Shown here in pieces: positions 1-9,369 of a DNA stretch of 64,000 bases; positions within the stretch are counted from its first letter, which is position 1; each line of letters begins with the position of its first letter. This DNA is from an uncultured Clostridia bacterium (GTDB lineage Bacteria; Bacillota; Clostridia; TANB77; CAG-508): NCBI GenBank assembly GCA_934154445.1, contig CAKPGC010000001.1, forward strand, positions 21,787 through 85,786. The letters are read 5' to 3'. The translations under genes and the position numbers were made by a program. Under the pieces are notes generated by a model, which saw only the letters and a program-made list of their open reading frames with translations, was not told the origin of the DNA and did no database searches.

Positions 1-350
1 TAAAAGAGACAAGAGCAAGCTCTTATCTCATGTGTGGGTGAGGTTTATCTGTGGGATAAATCTCTATTTTTCTTTTTTTGGAACAATATTTTAATGCATA
101 TCTCTTTTGGGAGCAAATATGTACTAGAAACGATAGTCCTAAAAAGAAAGCTAATATTATTAATAAAATCTTTATTAACTCCATAGCTGTTAACCTCCTT
201 CTTACGAGATTTACATTTAAGTCATTAAAGACATAAATGCATAGATTAGCAAGCATATAACATAGACTTACTAGTCTATGCACTTATGCCTGAAGAAGGT
301 TAACTTCCCAACCAAGAAGATTATAATATATATTTACTTAATAGTCAATA

Positions 351-1580
351 TTATTTCTGTTGTTTTATATAATTTTTAAACATATTATAAGCCTTATCAA
401 GTGCCTTAACCAATTTGTCTACATCTTCTTTTGTATTGTAGATGTAGAAACTTGCTCTACATGTAGAATCAATACCTAAGAATCTCATAAGAGGTTGTGC
501 ACAATGATTTCCAGAACGTACACATACACCTTCTGAATCTAAAATACTTGCCACATCATGTGGGTGTACTCCTTTAATGTTGAATGAAATTACACTTGAA
601 TGATTTTCTTCATTTGGTGTTGTGTATAGTGTTAGATAATCTAATTTGGATAATTCCTGCCTTGCATAAGATATTACTTCATGTTCAATTTCTTGTATTT
701 TATCATATCCTAAATTTTCAATATAATCAATTGCAGCTCCTAAACCAATTACACCTTCAACATTTTGTGTACCTGCTTCAAATTTATTTGGAAGTGGTGC
801 AAATGTTGTATCTTGTTCATAAACATACTCTATCATATCTCCACCCATTAAAAATGGAGTCATTTTATTTAGTATTTCCCTTTTTCCATATAATACACCT
901 ATTCCAAGTGGTGCAAGCATTTTATGTCCTGAAAATACTAGAAAATCTGCATCTAAATCTTGAACATCAATTTTTGTATGTGGTATGCTTTGTGATGCGT
1001 CAACTATTACTACTGCACCTTTTTTGTGTGCGTATTTAATTATTTTTTTCACATTATTTATTGTTCCTAAAACATTTGAAACATGTGTAATTCCGACGAT
1101 TTTTGTTTTGTCTGTAATTTTGCTTTCTATTTCTTCGTCTGTAATTTCATAGTTTTCGTTGATATACATATAATTTAATTTGCTACCTGTTTGCTTTGTC
1201 ATTTTTTGCCAAGGAACTAAATTTGAATGATGTTCCATTATTGAAATTACTACTTCATCATCTTTTTTTAGGTTGTCCAATCCATAAGAATATGCAATTA
1301 GGTTTAAACTTTCTGTTGCATTTTTTGAGAATATTATTTCTTCTCTATGTTTTGCATTTATGAATTTTGCTATTTTTGTTCTTGTATTTTCGTATTGTTC
1401 AGTTGCTTCTACACTTAATGAATATGCCCCCCTGTGTGGGTTTGCGTTATATTTTTGGTAGAATTCTTCTACTGCTTTTATTACTTGTATTGGCTTTTGT
1501 GTTGTTGCTCCACTATCTAGATATGTTATGTTTTTATTTTCTAGTATTGGAAAATCTTTTTTTATTTGTTCTTTATTCAT
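351..1580 (-). CDS. sufS: cysteine desulfurase SufS (class V aminotransferase)
   Basis: 409 aa; PLP-dependent cysteine desulfurase motifs (HHSNLVPWQ, SGHKM); last gene of sufCBD-x-S cluster. Confidence 0.9.
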   Translation of the reverse strand: MNKEQIKKDFPILENKNITYLDSGATTQKPIQVIKAVEEFYQKYNANPHRGAYSLSVEATEQYENTRTKIAKFINAKHREEIIFSKNATESLNLIAYSYGLDNLKKDDEVVISIMEHHSNLVPWQKMTKQTGSKLNYMYINENYEITDEEIESKITDKTKIVGITHVSNVLGTINNVKKIIKYAHKKGAVVIVDASQSIPHTKIDVQDLDADFLVFSGHKMLAPLGIGVLYGKREILNKMTPFLMGGDMIEYVYEQDTTFAPLPNKFEAGTQNVEGVIGLGAAIDYIENLGYDKIQEIEHEVISYARQELSKLDYLTLYTTPNEENHSSVISFNIKGVHPHDVASILDSEGVCVRSGNHCAQPLMRFLGIDSTCRASFYIYNTKEDVDKLVKALDKAYNMFKNYIKQQK

Positions 1581-1583
1581 AAA

Positions 1584-1784
1584 TTATCTCCCATCATCTT
1601 CTATTTCGGATATTTGTTGATTTTCGTTACATTCTTGTGTATATACAATTTTCTTTTCTTCTGAAAAAGCTTTTTCTATTTCATCATAATTTGGTTCAAT
1701 AGGATTTATTTTAATGTTTTGGTATTTTATCATATTTTTCCATGTTCCCATAAATTCATCCATAAACTCTCTTGAATTCTTCAT
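1584..1784 (-). CDS. small hypothetical protein (66 aa) embedded between sufD and sufS
   Basis: ORF tightly packed in the suf operon (4 nt before sufS start); acidic, no recognisable domain. Confidence 0.3.
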   Translation of the reverse strand: MKNSREFMDEFMGTWKNMIKYQNIKINPIEPNYDEIEKAFSEEKKIVYTQECNENQQISEIEDDGR

Positions 1785-1817
1785 TAAATCTTTCTCCTTA
1801 AAATTACAATTATATTA

Positions 1818-2894
1818 TTAATCTAACCTCTTATCAATTTCTTGTAAAATTTCTTCTCTCAATTCTTCATTTTCAATCTTCTCTAAAATCTGATTAAATC
1901 TAGCTCTAACCATCAATTTCATAGCCTCTTTAAGTTCAAAGCCTCTACTCATAATATAGAATAATTCTTTCTCGCCAATTTTTCCAGCCGAACTTGAATG
2001 ATTACCTTCAACCTCTTCTTCAGAACAAAGAAGCATTGGTAAAGCTATTGATTTTGCTGCATCTGACAACAACATACAAGCTTCGTTTTCGTTTCCAGTA
2101 GCCTTTTTGCAACCTTTTTTGAAATCAATTGTTCCTTTAAAATGTTTTTTGGATGTATCTTTTAAAGCTCCTTGAACCTCTATATCAATATTAGATTTTT
2201 TCCCTCTTAATTCGCCTATATAATTTAAGTCAAAAACTTGATTTTCTTTTCCTAAATAAATTGTGTTTAATTGGTTATCACAGCTATCACCTTGTAAATT
2301 AGAATAATAATTTGTAATGCTGTGTTTTCCGCCGAAGTCAACAATTGTATAATTGATTTTTGCATTTTCTTCAAAATCATTTTCAATTGCCAAAAAGTTA
2401 TTTGATTTTGTATTCATTAAATTAACTAAAACTATATTTAATTCTGAATTTTTTTCTGCTTTTGCTTTTATTATTCCATTGTGATAATTTTCATTTTCTT
2501 GATTTGATGTGTATTTTATTATTACTGTTGATTTTGTGTTTTCGTTTGCAATAATTTCTATGTTATCTATTAATACAGCATTTTCATTATCAAAATTAAA
2601 ATCTATTTCTGCTTCTGATTTTTCATTTTGATTACTATTTATGTTTAATTTTATTTTTTGATTTGCTCCGTGTTTTACTTGATTCGTAAGTTCTTCACTT
2701 AAACCATAAACTAAATTTGTATCTGTATTGCTATCTATATCTATTTTAGATGTATCACCAATTATTGTTACATTTTCAAATATTGGTATTACTTCTGGAA
2801 CTGCAATATTTTCTAATTTTATATTGTTTATTCTGAAGTTTTTTGCTGTTCTAACTGGTGTTTCATTTAATTTTAAATTTTCCATATTATCCAA
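1818..2894 (-). CDS. sufD: Fe-S cluster assembly protein SufD
   Basis: 358 aa; C-terminal SufB/SufD signature (FYIMSRGF...); overlaps sufB stop by 8 nt. Confidence 0.8.
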   Translation of the reverse strand: MDNMENLKLNETPVRTAKNFRINNIKLENIAVPEVIPIFENVTIIGDTSKIDIDSNTDTNLVYGLSEELTNQVKHGANQKIKLNINSNQNEKSEAEIDFNFDNENAVLIDNIEIIANENTKSTVIIKYTSNQENENYHNGIIKAKAEKNSELNIVLVNLMNTKSNNFLAIENDFEENAKINYTIVDFGGKHSITNYYSNLQGDSCDNQLNTIYLGKENQVFDLNYIGELRGKKSNIDIEVQGALKDTSKKHFKGTIDFKKGCKKATGNENEACMLLSDAAKSIALPMLLCSEEEVEGNHSSSAGKIGEKELFYIMSRGFELKEAMKLMVRARFNQILEKIENEELREEILQEIDKRLD

Positions 2895-4284
2895 TTGCTC
2901 CTTCTAATTCTAAGTTAATAAGATTATTCATTTCAACAGCATATTCTACTGGTAATTCTTTTGCTATTGGATGTGCAAAACCTCTTACTATCATAGCCTT
3001 TGCATCTTCTTCTGATAGTCCTCTACTCATCAAATAGAATATTGTTTTATCACTTATTTTTCCTATTTTGGCTTCGTGTGAAAATTCAACTTCGTCTGTT
3101 CTTATGTCATTTGTTGGTATTGTATCTGAAATTGATATGTCGTCTAACATAAGCGATTCACATGATACTGATGATTTTGAATTTTTTGCATTTTCATTTA
3201 TTCTTACTAAACTTCTATATGTGCATTTTCCACCATTTTTTGATATTGATTTTGCATTTACTACACTTGATGTGTTTGGTGCATTATGAATTACTTTGAA
3301 TCCATTATCTAGGTTTTGTCCTCCACCTGCAAATGATATTCCTGTAAACTCTGTTTTTGCACCTTCTCCATTTAATATGCTCATTGGATATAGCATTGAT
3401 ATTTTTGAACCAAATGAACCTGATACCCAGTCCATTTTTGCATTTTTTCCTACTATTGCTTTTTTTGTATTTAAGTTAAGCATATTTTTTGACCAGTTTT
3501 CTATTGTTGAATATCTTAAATAAGCATTGTCTGCTACATATAATTCAACACATCCAGCGTGTAGGTTTACTTTATTATATTTTGGTGCTGAACATCCTTC
3601 TATAAAGTGCAAACTTGCCCCTTCTTCTAGAATTATTAATGTGTGTTCAAATTGTCCTGATTCTGGTGAATTTAGTCTGAAGTATGATTGCAATGGAACA
3701 TCTACTTTTACTCCTTTTGGTACATATACAAATGAACCGCCTGACCATACTGCTCCATGTAATGCAACAAATTTGTGGTCATTTACTGGCACACATTTCA
3801 TAAAGTGTGATTTTACTAGTTCTGGATATTCTCTTACTGCTGTTTCCATATCTGTGTAAATTACACCTTGTTTAATTAAATCTTCTTTCATACTATGATA
3901 AACAACTTCTGAATCATATTGTGCACCAACACCTGCAAGTGATGTCTTTTCTGCTTCTGGTATTCCTAATTTGTCAAATGTATTTTTAATATCTTCTGGA
4001 ACATCATCCCATGAACTATTTAATTTTGACTTTGGTCTCACATAAGTTGCTATCTCATCCATATTTAATTCTGATAAATCTGGTCCCCATGTTGGCATTT
4101 CTAAGTTGTTATATACTTCTAATGCTTTTAACCTGAATTCTCTCATCCAGTCTGGGTCGTTTTTTTGTTTTGATATTTCTTCTATTATTTCTGGTGTTAA
4201 ACCTTTTTTTATTTTAAAGTCATATTCGTCTTTGTTTTTTATATCATAGATATTTCTATTTATTTCTTCAACTTGAGTTTTCAT
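2887..4284 (-). CDS. sufB: Fe-S cluster assembly protein SufB
   Basis: 465 aa; SufB signature FYLMSRGLSEEDAKAMIVRGF at C-terminus. Confidence 0.9.
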   Translation of the reverse strand: MKTQVEEINRNIYDIKNKDEYDFKIKKGLTPEIIEEISKQKNDPDWMREFRLKALEVYNNLEMPTWGPDLSELNMDEIATYVRPKSKLNSSWDDVPEDIKNTFDKLGIPEAEKTSLAGVGAQYDSEVVYHSMKEDLIKQGVIYTDMETAVREYPELVKSHFMKCVPVNDHKFVALHGAVWSGGSFVYVPKGVKVDVPLQSYFRLNSPESGQFEHTLIILEEGASLHFIEGCSAPKYNKVNLHAGCVELYVADNAYLRYSTIENWSKNMLNLNTKKAIVGKNAKMDWVSGSFGSKISMLYPMSILNGEGAKTEFTGISFAGGGQNLDNGFKVIHNAPNTSSVVNAKSISKNGGKCTYRSLVRINENAKNSKSSVSCESLMLDDISISDTIPTNDIRTDEVEFSHEAKIGKISDKTIFYLMSRGLSEEDAKAMIVRGFAHPIAKELPVEYAVEMNNLINLELEGAIG

Positions 4285-4315
4285 TTTTTAGCTCCTTTGA
4301 ATTTTTATTTACTTT

Positions 4316-5089
4316 TTATTTATATTGTGCATATCCATTTTCTTCAATTTCTGAAGCCAATTCTTGTCCACCTGTTTTAACAATTTTTCCATTAACCAAA
4401 ACATGAACATAATCAACCTTTAAACTATGCAAAATTTTAGTATTATGAGTAATAATTAAAACAGCATTATTCTCATTTTTAAACATCTCAATACCTTTTG
4501 AAACAGTCTTTATTGCATCAACATCAAGACCAGAATCTGTTTCGTCAAGAATAGCAAGTTTTGGATTTAATACAAGCATTTGTAAAATCTCATTTTTCTT
4601 TTTCTCTCCACCTGAAAATCCAACATTTAAGCTTCTTTCCATATTTTTAGGATTCATATTTAATTCTTCCATATATTTTTTCAATTCGTCTTTAAATTGA
4701 AAGATTTTTACTGGTTCTCCTGTTATTTTATTTTTTGCATATTTCAAGAAGTTTGTAACTGAAACCCCAGGAATTTCTTCTGGCAATTGGAATGACATAA
4801 AAATTCCTTTTCTTGCAATTTCATCTGTTCTTGATTCTGTAATATCTTCACCATCAAAAGTTATTGTTCCATTTGTTTTTGTATATTCTGGATTATTTAA
4901 TATTGCATTTGCTGTTGTTGTTTTTCCAGAACCATTTGGTCCCATTATTACATGGATTTCTCCTTTTTTAATATCTAAGTCTATTCCTTTTAATATTTCT
5001 TTTTCTCCTGCGTTTACATGTAAATCTTTTATTTCTAATAAATTACTCATTATTTTAAATCCTTTCTTTTTTTTCAATAGTTCCATCAC
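4316..5089 (-). CDS. sufC: Fe-S cluster assembly ATPase SufC
   Basis: 257 aa ABC ATPase; Walker A GPNGSGKTT, signature FSGGEKKK. Confidence 0.9.
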   Translation of the reverse strand: MMELLKKKKGFKIMSNLLEIKDLHVNAGEKEILKGIDLDIKKGEIHVIMGPNGSGKTTTANAILNNPEYTKTNGTITFDGEDITESRTDEIARKGIFMSFQLPEEIPGVSVTNFLKYAKNKITGEPVKIFQFKDELKKYMEELNMNPKNMERSLNVGFSGGEKKKNEILQMLVLNPKLAILDETDSGLDVDAIKTVSKGIEMFKNENNAVLIITHNTKILHSLKVDYVHVLVNGKIVKTGGQELASEIEENGYAQYK

Positions 5090-5100
5090 TATTGAAAATT

Positions 5101-5547
5101 TTACTTTTTATTTGTTCTTCTTGCACAACATCTACATTTTTCTTTATTTATATCATAATCGCAATCTAGATTTGTTAGTCCAAGTTCCTTATGTACGTAT
5201 TTTGCTAACTTATTTATTGTATCATCTGTTATCGTTGTTTTTATTTTTTCTGCTTCCTGTTTTGCATCTTCTTCTTCTAAATTCAAAACATCTTTCAAAA
5301 ATACATAAACTATATCATAAGCTTCCAGTATTTTTTTTGCAAGATTTTCTCCTTCTTCAGTTAATTCTATTGTTCCATAGGATTCATAATTTAGAAGACC
5401 ATTGTCTTTTAAATTATAAATTGCTTTATTTACACTTGGTTTTGTACAATTCATTTTCTTTGCAATATCTGTAACTCTTATGTTTTCATTTTGTTTTTTT
5501 AGTACATACATTGTTTTTAAATATTCTTCCAACGATTTCGATATCAT
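5101..5547 (-). CDS. DtxR/MntR-family metalloregulator with C-terminal Cys-rich tail (CDYDINKEKCRCC)
   Basis: 148 aa; N-terminal HTH and dimerisation region align with B. subtilis MntR (SLEEYLKTMYVL..IRVTDIA..PSV); canonical MntR His/Glu metal ligands not conserved; extra Cys cluster; 11 nt upstream of sufC. Confidence 0.7.
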   Translation of the reverse strand: MISKSLEEYLKTMYVLKKQNENIRVTDIAKKMNCTKPSVNKAIYNLKDNGLLNYESYGTIELTEEGENLAKKILEAYDIVYVFLKDVLNLEEEDAKQEAEKIKTTITDDTINKLAKYVHKELGLTNLDCDYDINKEKCRCCARRTNKK

Positions 5548-5580
5548 TTTTGCATCTCCTTTTTGTTAGTTTCGGTTAAC

Positions 5581-5609
5581 ATTATACTCTGATATCTATT
5601 TTTTGTCAA
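5581..5609 (-). promoter_or_regulatory. sigma-A type promoter for regulator-sufCBDS operon (TTGACA-17-TATAAT)
   Basis: minus-sense cTTGACAaaaaatagatatcagagTATAATg; perfect consensus hexamers with 17 nt spacer about 35 nt upstream of regulator start. Confidence 0.5.
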
Positions 5610-5653
5610 GTTTTTTCATATTTATTTTTAAGCCAATTACCTTTACAATACAG

Positions 5654-5682
5654 AAAATCCTTACATATATTGTAAGGATTTT
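5654..5682. terminator. perfect 12-bp hairpin downstream of thrS
   Basis: aaaatccttaca-tatat-tgtaaggatttt; T-tract lies on the plus side, so orientation relative to thrS is ambiguous. Confidence 0.45.
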
Positions 5683-5703
5683 CTTATTTTAGTTTGCATA
5701 TTT

Positions 5704-7629
5704 TTATTTTGTTTTATTCTCAACTTCATATTTTATTTTTGAAATAAACTCATCAGATTTCATCACTTCATTTTCAGCACTTTCTCTTGAACGAATTGAA
5801 ACAGAGTCTTCTTCAACTTCCTTTGCTCCAATTACTAACATATAAGGAACCTTTTCAAGTTGAGCTTCACGTATTTTATATCCAACTTTTTCATTTCTAT
5901 CATCTAAAACGACACGAATTCCAGCTTTGTGTAATTTCTCTTCAAGTGTTTTTGCATAATCATGTTGTGCATCTGTAATAGGAAGTATTTTTACTTGTGT
6001 TGGTGATAGCCATAATGGAAATGCACCTTTTGTTTCTTCAATTAAGAAACACATAAATCTATCAAATGTTCCTAAAATTGCTCTGTGGATAACAACTGGT
6101 CTATGTTTTTCTCCATCTTCTCCAACATATTCTAGCTTAAATCTTTCTGGCAATAAGAAATCTAATTGGCAAGTTGATACTGTTACATCATGTCCAACTG
6201 CTGATTTTAATTGGACATCTAATTTTGGTCCATAGAATGCAGCTTCTCCTTCTGCTTCATAGAATGGTACTCCAAGTTCTGTTAAAATTTCTCTTAATTG
6301 ACCTTCTGCTTTTTCCCACATTTCATCATCGTCAAAATATTTTTCTTTATTATTTTTGTCTCTTAAAGATAATCTAAATTCATAATCTTTAAATCCAAAA
6401 TCTTTGTAAACAGATAAAATTAATTGAACAACTTTTCCGAATTCTTCTTTTATTTGATCTGGTCTTACAAAAAGGTGAGCATCATTTTGACACATTTCAC
6501 GAACTCTCTCTAAACCGCAAACACTTCCGCTGTCTTCATATCTAAAGTCATGTGCAAGTTCTCCAATTCTTATTGGTAAATCTCTGTATGAGTGCATTTT
6601 ATTTTTATAAATAAGCATGTGATGTGGACAGTTCATTGGTCTTAATACCATTTCTTCATTATCCATTTTCATAACAGGGAACATATCTTCTTTGTAGTGA
6701 TCCCAGTGACCTGAAACTTTGTATAATTCTGTATTTGCAAGTGATGGTGTATATACATGTTGATATCCCATTTCAACTTCTTTATCTTGTATATATCTTT
6801 CTAGTAATCTTCTTACTGTTGCTCCATTTGGTAAATACATTGGAAGTCCTGAACCTACTAATGGGCTTGTCATAAATAATTCTAAGTCTTTTCCTATTTT
6901 TCTGTGATCACGTTGTCTTGCTTCTTCTAATTTTTGCATATATTCATCAACTTGACTTGCTTTTGGGAATGATATAGCATAAATTCTTTGTAGCATTTTA
7001 TTCTTTTCATCACCTCTCCAATAAGCTCCTGAAGATGATAATATTTTGACAGCTTTTACTTTTCCTGTTTTCATTAAATGTGGTCCAGCACATAAGTCTG
7101 TAAAATCACCTTGTTTGTAAAAGCTTATTTCTTCCCCATCTGCTAAATCATTTATTAATTCTTGTTTATATGGTTGTCCTTCCATTAATTTTAAAGCCTC
7201 TTGTTTTGATAAAGTAAATCTTTCTATTTCAAAATCTTCTTTTATTATTTTCTTCATTTCTGCTTCGATATTTGCTTTATCTTCATCTGTAAATGGTTTT
7301 TCTACATCAAAGTCATAGTAAAATCCATTTTCGATACTTGGTCCTATTGCAAATTTTACGTTTGGGAACAATCTTTGCACAGCTTGTGCCATTATATGTG
7401 ATGTTGTATGCCAATAAGCTTTTTTTCCATCAATACTACTTTCAAATGTTTCTATACTTAAACTGCAATCCTCTTGCAATTCGTATCTTAAGTCTTTCAC
7501 TTCTCCATTTACTATTCCACAAGTTGCCATTCTTGCTAAACCTTCACTTATTTTTTGTGCTACTTCTATTATTGAAGTTCCTTGCTCTACTTCTATATTA
7601 GAGCCATCTTTTAATGTTACCTTAACCAT
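5704..7629 (-). CDS. thrS: threonine--tRNA ligase
   Basis: 641 aa; TGS domain, class II aaRS motifs, HRKIGKDLELF. Confidence 0.95.
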   Translation of the reverse strand: MVKVTLKDGSNIEVEQGTSIIEVAQKISEGLARMATCGIVNGEVKDLRYELQEDCSLSIETFESSIDGKKAYWHTTSHIMAQAVQRLFPNVKFAIGPSIENGFYYDFDVEKPFTDEDKANIEAEMKKIIKEDFEIERFTLSKQEALKLMEGQPYKQELINDLADGEEISFYKQGDFTDLCAGPHLMKTGKVKAVKILSSSGAYWRGDEKNKMLQRIYAISFPKASQVDEYMQKLEEARQRDHRKIGKDLELFMTSPLVGSGLPMYLPNGATVRRLLERYIQDKEVEMGYQHVYTPSLANTELYKVSGHWDHYKEDMFPVMKMDNEEMVLRPMNCPHHMLIYKNKMHSYRDLPIRIGELAHDFRYEDSGSVCGLERVREMCQNDAHLFVRPDQIKEEFGKVVQLILSVYKDFGFKDYEFRLSLRDKNNKEKYFDDDEMWEKAEGQLREILTELGVPFYEAEGEAAFYGPKLDVQLKSAVGHDVTVSTCQLDFLLPERFKLEYVGEDGEKHRPVVIHRAILGTFDRFMCFLIEETKGAFPLWLSPTQVKILPITDAQHDYAKTLEEKLHKAGIRVVLDDRNEKVGYKIREAQLEKVPYMLVIGAKEVEEDSVSIRSRESAENEVMKSDEFISKIKYEVENKTK

Positions 7630-7639
7630 AATACTTCCT

Positions 7640-7925
7640 CCTTTATTCTTTTTTTAAGATAGATTATTAGTTTTAAAAAAACACACTCCTATAGATTAAA
7701 AAATCTATAGGAGTGCTTCTATTACACGGTTCCATCCTAATTTTTACTCAATTATAAGACTATAACGCATCTTACACGTTTGGTTTATTCACCAAAAACT
7801 TGAAGAGTTAGTTTTTCAAATATGTTTTCTTGAATTAGCTTTCAGCCACGGCTATTTCTCTCTTTTTAGTAACCTTTATTTTACTTTTTCTCTTACTTGC
7901 CTTTTATTATAAACTAATTATAATT
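7640..7925 (-). promoter_or_regulatory. T-box leader (tRNA-Thr sensing) upstream of thrS
   Basis: minus-sense T-box motif AAATTAGGATGGAACCGTG at 7726-7744, followed by terminator hairpin cactcctatagatt/aatctataggagtg at 7684-7716; candidate ACU specifier in Stem I. Confidence 0.75.
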
Positions 7926-7977
7926 TTAATACCTTTTTTGGAAAAAGTCAAGTATTTATTAAATAGAAACTTTTTCC

Positions 7978-8181
7978 TCAAATATTAACAATACTAATAT
8001 TATTTATTGTTTCTTCTATTTTATTCTTGCTATAATTATCTAATGCACTTGTTGACTCGTCAAATAATATAATTGATGTATCTATTAGTATTGCTCTTGC
8101 TATCGCAATCCTTTGTTTTTGACCAACTGAAATATTATTATTATTTTCATTTACCATTAATAAATTATCCTTTATGCTCAC
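7978..8181 (-). pseudogene. remnant of ABC transporter ATP-binding domain (signature motif to Walker B region only)
   Basis: 67 aa ORF with ISVGQKQRIAIARAIL and IILFDESTSALD but no Walker A or transmembrane part. Confidence 0.55.
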
Positions 8182-8282
8182 ATTAAATAAAAAATCTTAT
8201 CCAATTTCAATGGATATACTGAAAATTTTGTTATTTTGTGGTATTATATACTTGAAATTACCAATATTAAAGGAGCAATATA

Positions 8283-8726
8283 ATGAATAACAAATATTAT
8301 TTTAAAAATGATACTAAATTAACAAATTATTTTTTGTGTGATGTTATAATAGATGGACTAAGATATTCTTCAAGCGAGGCGGCATATCATTCACAAAAAT
8401 TTTTAGACGAAGATATAAAGAAATTGATGACAAAACTTACACCCGACGAATCAAAAAATGTTAGTAGAGAATTATCAAGATTTATACGAGATGATTGGGA
8501 GAATGTCAAATATAGTTTAATGAAGAAAGTAGTGCTTGAAAAATTCAAACAAAATCCTGAATGTTTAAAAGAATTGTTAGACACAAGAGATATGGAATTA
8601 ATAGAAGATACAACAGGTTGGCACGATAATATATGGGGAAAATGTATGTGTGATGATTGCAAAGATTTAGAACATAAAAATTTATTAGGTAAAATTTTAA
8701 TGGAAGTAAGAGAAGAATTGAAATAA
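8283..8726 (+). CDS. NADAR (YbiA-like, DUF1768) family protein
   Basis: 147 aa; aligns with E. coli YbiA core (SSSEAAYHSQKFLDE; WG..C; LLGKILMEVREEL); RBS aaaggag. Confidence 0.7.
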   Translation: MNNKYYFKNDTKLTNYFLCDVIIDGLRYSSSEAAYHSQKFLDEDIKKLMTKLTPDESKNVSRELSRFIRDDWENVKYSLMKKVVLEKFKQNPECLKELLDTRDMELIEDTTGWHDNIWGKCMCDDCKDLEHKNLLGKILMEVREELK

Positions 8727-8837
8727 CATTTTTAAAGAGTAAAACAACGGAATTGATTTTAGCATAAGTTTTTAAAAATGTATACTTAGAAATTGCAATT
8801 AAACTAAATTTTATAAATCAATATAAAACGATACTTC

Positions 8838-8866
8838 TTGCAAAATTATGTTAATTATGCTATACT
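8838..8866 (+). promoter_or_regulatory. candidate sigma-A promoter (TTGCAA-17-TATACT) for zinc-ribbon ORF
   Basis: hexamers with 17-nt spacer about 70 nt upstream of ATG at 8938. Confidence 0.4.
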
Positions 8867-8937
8867 ATTTATGATATTTCGGTATTGTAGAAAATCCCAC
8901 ATAATAATTTATGCTAATTAGCAAGGAGGAAATCAAC

Positions 8938-9369
8938 ATGAAAGTTTATGCATGCGCTATTTGCGGAAAAGAACATGTAAAGTTATGGCGTCCTTATATG
9001 AGCACCGAACCGCTTATCTGTGCAACATGTGCAGAAGAACGGCAAAGCCCAAGAGAGTACAATGAATGTACTTGGGAAGAAAAATCTGACCTTTATATAG
9101 GAACTCCTACTGGAAAGAAACTTCCGCTTGCCAAGTGGGAAGTCAATGAAAAAGGTAAAATTCCTTCATATCATGGACCCGGTCCAGAAGGACTGCCTAT
9201 GAGAATGACGGACCAACTTATCGTTAACCTTAAGGATGTCTCTAAATCATATTCATCTGGTGAATCAATTTTGATTCCAGCTGTGCCTGATGAAAATGGA
9301 GATTTTTGGGGATATACTTCTGTACCTAAAGAACGTTGTAACTGGTGGGAAGAATTACCGTCAAGATAA
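8938..9369 (+). CDS. hypothetical zinc-ribbon protein (CxxC-x19-CxxC), GC-rich relative to surroundings
   Basis: start chosen at MKVYACAICGK with RBS aggagg 8 nt upstream (ORF track starts earlier at 8911); about 40% GC versus about 26% locally. Confidence 0.5.
   Translation: MKVYACAICGKEHVKLWRPYMSTEPLICATCAEERQSPREYNECTWEEKSDLYIGTPTGKKLPLAKWEVNEKGKIPSYHGPGPEGLPMRMTDQLIVNLKDVSKSYSSGESILIPAVPDENGDFWGYTSVPKERCNWWEELPSR

Follow-up and report, generated by a model that had tools for sequence, protein, structure and literature searches.

Introduction

The feedback regulators IscR and SufR follow the same logic: as holo-proteins they repress the genes for iron-sulfur (Fe-S) cluster biogenesis, and as apo-proteins they release them (PMC8593673). 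For most Gram-positives the regulation of the suf genes was still described as unknown in a review of 2021 (PMC8593673). In a metal-sensor review of 2024 the DtxR family figures as a group of repressors that are regulated by Fe(II) and Mn(II) (PMC11672702), and Fe-S assembly genes belong to the regulons of DtxR and IdeR (PMC11672702; PMC524172). The full-text literature searched contained no account of a suf regulator or Fe-S sensor of the DtxR type in Clostridia. The subject of this analysis is a regulator of 148 amino acids (aa) with a DtxR/MntR fold, encoded by the first gene of a suf operon in an uncultured Clostridia bacterium (GenBank assembly GCA_934154445.1, contig CAKPGC010000001.1). 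All positions refer to the analysed stretch of 64,000 nucleotides (nt) of this contig, in the following called the window. The regulator is very probably a dedicated repressor of an Fe-S/sulfur-trafficking operon which acts at an operator overlapping its own promoter.

An operator fused to the promoter

The coding sequence of the regulator (5101–5547, minus strand) ends with the stop codon TAA at 5101–5103, and its ATG at 5547 is preceded at a distance of 8 nt by the ribosome-binding site AGGAG (5556–5560, minus strand). The promoter consists of a −35 hexamer TTGACA (5604–5609, minus strand) and, after a spacer of 17 nt, a −10 hexamer TATAAT (5581–5586, minus strand). A preliminary description of the sequence had already called this promoter perfect, and TTGACA-17-TATAAT is indeed the sole 12/12 match to a sigma-70 promoter within positions 200–5800. 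Both elements are conserved: TTGACA is present in 77 of 79 related loci, and TATAAT is near-invariant across the 77 related loci with an extracted site, with one substitution at one position.

Alignment of the upstream regions of 80 loci reveals an inverted repeat TGTTAAC-N4-GTTAACA (consensus TGTTAACCGTAGTTAACA), with TGTTAnC-N4-GnTAACA as the family consensus. The copy in the window is an 18-bp inverted repeat, TGTTAACCGAAACTAACA (5564–5581, minus strand). It lies within the region 5560–5640, where the preliminary description had proposed to look for a palindromic operator of the DtxR type. Operator and −10 box share one base, the last T of the box, with which the operator begins, and the operator thereby covers the transcription start. 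With up to two mismatches and within 200 nt upstream of the regulator, the operator was found in 77 of the 80 genome loci (40 copies are perfect, 24 deviate at one position and 13 at two). The 872 kb of related loci contain just 12 other matches of this quality. When the related loci are compared position by position, the half-sites are practically constant and the four spacer positions are free to vary, a pattern characteristic of non-coding DNA that a protein recognises. Eleven of the 12 other matches belong to a recurrent 'site' AGTTAACAGATGTTTACA behind sufS in 11 relatives, which was rejected as a coding coincidence inside sufU (codons ELTDVY).

Within the 64 kb of the window there is a single match at up to two mismatches. 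At up to three mismatches four matches are found compared with 7.15 expected by chance, so no regulon of further operators emerges in the window. Because there is one operator in 64 kb and none elsewhere in the 872 kb apart from coding coincidences, the regulator appears to be a local operon regulator and not a global iron regulator.

The operator is also retained outside the circle of close relatives. All eight distinct loci of distant homologues with 35–50 % identity possess a version of the palindrome, located at the −10 box or shortly behind it and in two of the loci degenerate; examples are TAAAATGTTAGCATAAGCTAACA (L083), TGTTAGCATGCACTAACA (L082) and TGTTAACCTAAGTTAACA (L089). Furthermore, 71 of 78 metagenome loci carry it compared with 7 of 2000 random 150-nt windows (0.35 %). 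Three orphan regulators which do not lie beside Fe-S genes (L112, L113 and L116) likewise retain the operator, which points to autoregulation.

Some loci show an insertion of 50–140 nt between the operator and the ribosome-binding site (L008, L012, L014, L015, L019–L021, L025, L027, L029, L030, L033, L070, L076, L080 and L115); the window lacks such an insert. Hairpins of the type GGGATTAA...TTAATCCC are found in some of these inserts, which may represent miniature mobile elements or added leader structures.

Association with Fe-S and sulfur-trafficking genes

The order regulator-sufC-sufB-sufD-sufS is found in 72 of the 80 species-level genome loci, and sufU and mnmA come next where the DNA reaches further (L019). 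Among the close relatives the exceptions are five loci in which the regulator directly precedes mnmA, and one in which it precedes a pair of genes for a SufC-like and a SufBD-core protein followed by mnmA. The contexts of the distant homologues (35–50 % identity) are in line with this in eight out of eight informative cases. Six of these regulators (P0137, P0153, P0190, P0196, P0263 and P0269) precede a gene for a SufC-like ATP-binding cassette (ABC) protein, which is followed by a SufBD-core gene (about 310 aa) wherever the contig extends; P0144 precedes a NifS-type desulfurase and mnmA, and P0149 precedes mnmA. The loci with the order regulator, desulfurase and mnmA (L082 and L119) mirror the cymR-yrvO-mnmA arrangement of Bacillus subtilis.

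An independent scan of metagenomes, seeded with the distant clade (alignment A4), gave a similar picture. In 69 of 76 informative loci an Fe-S or sulfur-trafficking gene directly follows the regulator, namely SufC in 45, a minimal SufC-like protein in 21, MnmA in two and NifS in one locus; other genes follow in the remaining seven. The synteny with suf in relatives, which the preliminary description had proposed to check, is thus borne out in both collections. No Mn transporter stands beside the regulator in the window or in the inspected loci, and a tail-less relative with intact metal ligands adjoins feoB instead. In the sequences compared, the loss of the metal site thus as a rule goes hand in hand with the cysteine tail, the operator and the Fe-S/sulfur-trafficking context. 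The carriers are mostly uncultured gut Clostridia, e.g. Clostridium sp. CAG:575, CAG:389 and CAG:492.

The two-gene system of the distant members consists of a SufC-like ATPase of 223–240 aa and a SufBD-core protein of 306–316 aa (L081 6477–8144; L086 5492–7088; L011 6500–8146; and 21 metagenome loci). The SufBD-core protein scores far under the cut-offs for SufB, SufD and SmsB (e.g. 79 vs 650 for SmsB). One of the SufC-like proteins ends in a CC pair, reminiscent of the Cys-rich C-terminus described for SmsC.

A DtxR/MntR fold with a lost metal site

By domains and fold the regulator is a protein of the DtxR/MntR superfamily. The N-terminal winged-helix DNA-binding domain (residues 1–58; 5374–5547, minus strand) is matched by Pfam PF01325 (Fe_dep_repress) with 48.2 bits at a gathering cut-off of 26, and the dimerisation and former metal-binding domain (residues 63–119; 5191–5361, minus strand) by PF02742 (Fe_dep_repr_C) with 47.3 bits at a cut-off of 27. 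An AlphaFold2 model calculated from a 23-sequence alignment reached a mean predicted local distance difference test (pLDDT) score of 86, with values of 67–80 in the tail. Foldseek aligned this model with the solved structures of MntR, DtxR and IdeR at a probability of 1.00, template modelling (TM) scores of 0.68–0.77 and a root-mean-square deviation (rmsd) of 1.4–2.2 Å over 112–122 residues. Together with the operon order these data uphold the proposal that a DtxR/MntR-type protein heads the suf operon. The top NCBIfam matches are MntR models; the cut-offs of the MntR equivalogs NF008273 and NF003025 are by far not reached (69.4 vs 153 and 63.4 vs 138, respectively). Databases know the family solely as 'DtxR family Mn-dependent transcriptional regulator' (JGI). 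Membership in the Rrf2 family was considered and rejected: the full-length match to PF02082 scores 21.7 bits vs 30 (E 2.4e-4), TIGR00738 gives 17.8 vs a cut-off of 73.3, and all fold matches are of the DtxR type. The weak Rrf2 match goes back to a generic architecture in which a winged helix is joined to a long helix.

Judged by its residues, the regulator lacks the defining functional feature of its superfamily, the interdomain metal site. The ligand positions were mapped by a phmmer alignment to B. subtilis MntR (1ON1), which is ungapped across the N-terminal 85 residues. In the DNA-binding domain D8 of MntR corresponds to E8 and E11 to K11; in the dimerisation domain H77 corresponds to Y77, E99 to E100, E102 to K103 and H103 to T104. 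Four of the six positions are therefore replaced and E8 and E100 stay acidic, so that the substitution of His and Glu ligands noted in the preliminary description holds on this alignment. K11, Y77 and K103 are each fixed in 78 of 78 close relatives. Among 17 distant tail-bearing homologues, 11 have K or R at position 11 and 12 have K at position 103, and none has H at position 77. By contrast, the 22 tail-less neighbours from the same search retain D8 (19), E11 (20), H77 (22), C100 (22), E103 (22) and H104 (22). The C-x-x-E-H triad of the DtxR primary site is accordingly kept by all 22 tail-less neighbours and absent in the regulator, as are the residues of the primary (M10, C102, E105, H106) and ancillary (H79, E83, H98) sites of DtxR. 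The canonical Mn/Fe ligand set is thus lost consistently across the clade. K11 and K103 may fill the old pocket electrostatically beside the surviving E8 and E100, as a kind of 'pseudo-metal'. An E11K mutant of MntR made in the laboratory has been crystallised (4HX4 and 4HX8, according to the titles of the PDB entries).

The C-terminal cysteine module

Behind the dimerisation domain the regulator possesses a cysteine module (residues 127–144, LDCDYDINKEKCRCCARR; 5116–5169, minus strand), which is followed by a basic tail. The preliminary description had noticed a Cys-rich end. Such a tail is present and conserved; however, the protein does not stop after CDYDINKEKCRCC but continues with the seven residues ARRTNKK of the basic tail, and three Cys instead of four are conserved. 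These are C129 (codon 5163–5161), C138 (5136–5134) and C141 (5127–5125), which are invariant across the 80 species-level genome loci, whereas C140 (5130–5128) is variable and a Cys in just 40 of 78 close relatives.

A scan of 1.84 billion cluster representatives yielded 1037 DtxR-family relatives at E ≤ 1e-10. The motif C129-X8-C138-X2-C141 occurs in many 50%-identity clusters and persists in relatives with as little as about 35 % identity to the query, and its three Cys form invariant columns in alignments A2 and A3. Among 152 distinct tails the spacing C-X8-C-X2-C is found in 149. Exactly three Cys are present in 94 tails, and in the other 58 a fourth Cys stands at varying places: 41 tails have it inside C-X2-C, 14 behind the motif or at the extreme C-terminus, and six as a C-X-C at the first position. 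A basic stretch follows the Cys motif in all tails. Compared with solved structures the tail gave no match even at E = 10. These patterns narrow the tail to a three-cysteine (Cys3) core to which a fourth ligand is optional. In the combination of a fixed core and a fourth ligand that changes place it resembles Rrf2-type Fe-S sensors, and it would be compatible with Zn too.

In some loci an ATG inside TATAATGTTAAC is in frame, and gene callers lengthen the regulator by about 10 residues (cf. the 158-aa protein P0009); this start is seen in L006 (5968–7521) and at 5968 in L011, L059 and L060. In L006 the open reading frame (ORF) of the regulator runs on into mnmA (517 aa), which reflects a genuine fusion or else a mistake in the assembly.

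Proposed mechanism and alternative explanations

We infer the following mode of action, to which, taken as a whole chain, slightly better than even credence is given: the regulator would repress Fe-S biogenesis together with its own gene, and sensing would have passed from the dead metal site to the Cys3 tail, which most likely holds an Fe-S cluster. In the preliminary description an Fe-S/iron-responsive suf regulator on a DtxR scaffold had been proposed, and the parts of this proposal accessible to computation are upheld. A dimer with the DtxR/MntR fold would bind the palindrome TGTTAnC-N4-GnTAACA, the half-site centres of which lie about 11 bp, i.e. one helical turn, apart. Positioned at −10/+1 it would block the RNA polymerase and hence have to act as a repressor, silencing sufCBDS together with its own gene and, in relatives, sufU-mnmA as well. 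The binuclear Mn/Fe site of the ancestor, at which the co-repressor was bound, is dead, with K11, Y77, K103 and T104 in place of E11, H77, E102 and H103, and K11 and K103 may pair with the remaining carboxylates E8 and E100. Sensing would have shifted to C129-X8-C138-X2-C141, for which an Fe-S cluster supplied by the controlled machinery itself is the most probable cofactor, with a variable fourth ligand. As long as clusters are plentiful, the holo-protein would stay on the DNA and repress; when their supply drops by iron or sulfur shortage or by oxidative loss, the apo-protein would leave the operator and the operon would be induced. Candidates for the passage of the signal from the C-terminus to the DNA-binding domains are a stabilisation of the dimer or the positioning of the basic tail.

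Several observations weigh against this account. The operator copy of the window is itself imperfect, with two mismatches. In 63 of 79 relatives a second partial site TGTTA(A/G)C abuts the −35 box (TGTTAACCTTGACAAACA), and the window lacks it (5604–5640); repression in the window may therefore rely on the single −10 site. The regulators of L112, L113, L116, L133 and L138 do not adjoin Fe-S genes, and some members precede mnmA or a desulfurase gene without scaffold genes, which fits a sulfur or persulfide signal equally well. Just three Cys are conserved, a number that would suit Zn or a thiol switch equally well, and the tail that carries them was modelled at moderate confidence. The presence of an Fe-S cofactor in the tail is deduced from sequence, and a coupling of the far C-terminus to DNA binding lacks an explanation in the DtxR fold.

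The same repressor and operator would also fit a Cys3 tail which serves as a zinc-thiolate or as a bare-thiol switch for redox or sulfane-sulfur signals. Oxidants or persulfides would then modify the Cys or eject Zn, the protein would release the DNA, and suf and mnmA would be induced. Just three Cys are conserved and include a C-X2-C knuckle, which is typical of Zn sites, the loci with a NifS-type desulfurase and mnmA, or with mnmA alone, form a sulfur-trafficking context, and for hosts which are gut anaerobes an induction of suf on exposure to oxygen would presumably help. On the other hand, the persulfide sensors CstR, SqrR and BigR use two Cys and not three invariant ones, and the cluster scaffold SufBC(D) is the dominant context. 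In addition, the movable fourth Cys suggests a four-coordinate centre, which is common in Fe-S sensors and possible for Zn. A switch of this type is on balance rather unlikely.

A further alternative is an autoregulator which does not sense at all. The tail would be purely structural, e.g. a knuckle replacing the SH3 domain of DtxR, and constant negative autoregulation would damp the expression of suf. This agrees with the dead metal site, with a ligand pocket that is not demonstrated, and with the autoregulatory geometry which persists even at the 'orphan' loci. However, the fact that a cytoplasmic protein of anaerobes strictly conserves three Cys and their spacing over about 35–100 % identity speaks for a bound cofactor, the characterised dedicated regulators of Fe-S biogenesis, IscR and SufR, all sense the cluster status (PMC8593673), and a repressor without a sensor would be unusual for an essential pathway, all of which makes this explanation improbable. 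Least probable is a conventional MntR/DtxR protein with Mn(II) or Fe(II) as co-repressor, which ties suf to free metal via the interdomain site, like the DtxR control of suf predicted in Corynebacterium diphtheriae (PMC524172): the JGI name, the MntR models among the NCBIfam matches and the acidic E8 and E100 are in its favour, but the replacement of four ligands by Lys, Tyr, Lys and Thr throughout the relatives, the missing C-x-x-E-H triad, the equivalog scores of 69 vs 153 and 63 vs 138 and an operator spacing unlike that of the 19-bp DtxR box contradict it.

The feedback repressor with a Cys3 sensor would offer a concrete candidate for the control of suf in uncultured low-GC gut Clostridia and related lineages, defined by a protein, an 18-bp operator and three Cys. 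If true, it would account for the regulation of suf in one or more large groups of Gram-positive anaerobes and provide a clean case of a DNA-binding scaffold that stayed fixed when its sensor was exchanged: the interdomain metal site was lost and a terminal Cys module gained. One pair of regulator and operator accompanies different Fe-S assembly systems. The database label 'Mn-dependent' is probably wrong and would mislead the reconstruction of regulons in gut metagenomes.

The suf operon and its surroundings

The transcription unit is bounded upstream by a strong hairpin with a 14-bp stem (5652–5684), which lies between the promoter and thrS, the gene upstream of it. A search of window positions 1–9000 against Rfam gave no family at gathering score, so the leader is without a known riboswitch, and no T-box leader was recognisable before thrS (7630–9000). 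No terminator was found between the regulator and sufC.

The gene sufC (4316–5050, minus strand; TIGR01978 with 323.6 bits, model positions 1–242 aligned to residues 5–242) starts with ATG at 5050 behind AAAGGA. The distance to the stop codon of the regulator is thus 50 nt. The gap of 11 nt given in the preliminary description has to be corrected: it belongs to an in-frame GTG at 5089, which has no ribosome-binding site, and the SufC model starts at ATG 5050. Next follow sufB (2887–4284, minus strand; TIGR01980, 724 bits) and sufD (1818–2894, minus strand), a SufBD-core paralogue with 188.6 bits for PF01458 and 190 bits for TIGR01981, slightly under the cut-off of 222 bits. The final operon gene visible in the window is sufS for the cysteine desulfurase (351–1580, minus strand; TIGR01979, 596.6 bits).

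Between sufD and sufS lies an ORF of 66 aa (1584–1784, minus strand) without a match in Pfam or NCBIfam. Several relatives keep an ORF at the same position, with tblastn matches in L005, L008, L009, L024, L025, L028 and L034, and it may encode an undescribed small Suf accessory protein.

The genes sufU and mnmA were searched for in the window and neither was found. Their absence is probably an edge effect with both lying just past the left edge of the window, because relatives possess the same cassette of 350 nt between sufS and sufU. This cassette of about 350 nt is located directly 3' of sufS (window 1–350, minus strand) and has a promoter-like sequence of its own, TTGACT-17-TATAAT, at 348–320. 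It encodes an ORF of 53 aa (184–23) with a hydrophobic N-terminus and a basic C-terminus. Between sufS and sufU of relatives it recurs with 75–97 % DNA identity, in two copies in L021 (9552–9902 and 10465–10754) and also in L008 (11662–12012), L025, L027, L032, L007, L023 and L049. It resembles a repeated cassette for a small peptide, perhaps one of the type-I-toxin kind.

Some relatives carry an insert of about 340 nt between sufC and sufB (L008 7288–7628; also L005, L012, L015, L025, L027 and L032) with a hairpin and an apparent small hydrophobic ORF on the opposite strand; in the window this gap measures just 31 nt. Outside the operon, an ORF of 67 aa (7978–8181, minus strand) contains only the signature and a Walker B part of an ABC ATPase (…SVGQKQRIAIARAIL…LFDESTSALD…) and is probably a gene remnant.

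Comparison with known regulators

The closest structural relative is MntR of B. subtilis (PDB 1ON1, 2F5F, 9C4C). It has a similar length, the same arrangement of a winged helix and a helical dimerisation domain, and represses from a palindrome at the promoter. MntR-like proteins are the best sequence matches in the PDB (E ~1e-10) as well as the best structural ones, with TM scores of 0.75–0.77 and an rmsd of 1.4–1.7 Å. The regulator is, however, only about 24–28 % identical to MntR, falls far below the equivalog cut-offs and carries the additional C-X8-C-X2-C tail. Furthermore, MntR controls the uptake and efflux of Mn, whereas the genomic target of the regulator is Fe-S biogenesis.

DtxR and IdeR share both Pfam domains and the fold. 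The half-site TGTTAGC(C)/TGTTAGCC resembles the GGTTAGCC core of DtxR boxes, e.g. TTAGGTTAGCCAAACCTTT (PMC524172), but the half-sites lie five bp further apart than in the 19-bp iron box. In contrast to DtxR and IdeR, the regulator has no SH3-like third domain, and the residues of their primary and ancillary metal sites are absent.

The closest functional analogue is SufR of cyanobacteria and actinobacteria, which is likewise encoded by the first suf gene and represses itself from a palindromic operator (PMC8593673). Both proteins combine a DNA-binding domain at the N-terminus with C-terminal Cys; in SufR the Cys motif holds a [4Fe-4S] cluster and the holo form represses (PMC8593673). The scaffold of SufR is nevertheless of the unrelated DeoR/ArsR type; no SufR model matched the regulator, and a DeoR score of 16.3 bits is negligible. 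The Cys pattern of SufR is C-X12-C-X13-C-X14-C (PMC8593673) compared with C-X8-C-X2-C, and its operator is CAAC-N6-GTTG compared with TGTTAnC-N4-GnTAACA. The Rrf2-type sensors IscR, NsrR and RirA as well as CymR are winged-helix dimers whose three-Cys cluster site and variable fourth ligand recall the putative site of the regulator, and genes of the IscR/Rrf2 type also come first in Fe-S biogenesis operons. Their Cys follow the dimerisation helix with a spacing of the C-X5-C-X5-C type, while those of the regulator stand as C-X8-C-X2-C at the extreme C-terminus.

Because scaffold, Cys pattern and operator all differ, the regulator would resemble SufR and IscR in function and belongs to neither, and gut Clostridia probably possess in it a feedback regulator of Fe-S cluster synthesis of a kind not described so far. 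More tentatively, and with a likelihood just short of even, dedicated regulators of Fe-S biogenesis could have evolved independently a third time here, in a family that would join those of the Rrf2-type IscR and the DeoR-type SufR. This family would be characterised by a DtxR fold with a lysine-filled pocket, a Cys3 site sensing a cluster with an exchangeable fourth ligand, interchangeable modules (the full SUF system, the SufC/SufB-like pair or NifS-MnmA), and one operator fused to the −10 box.

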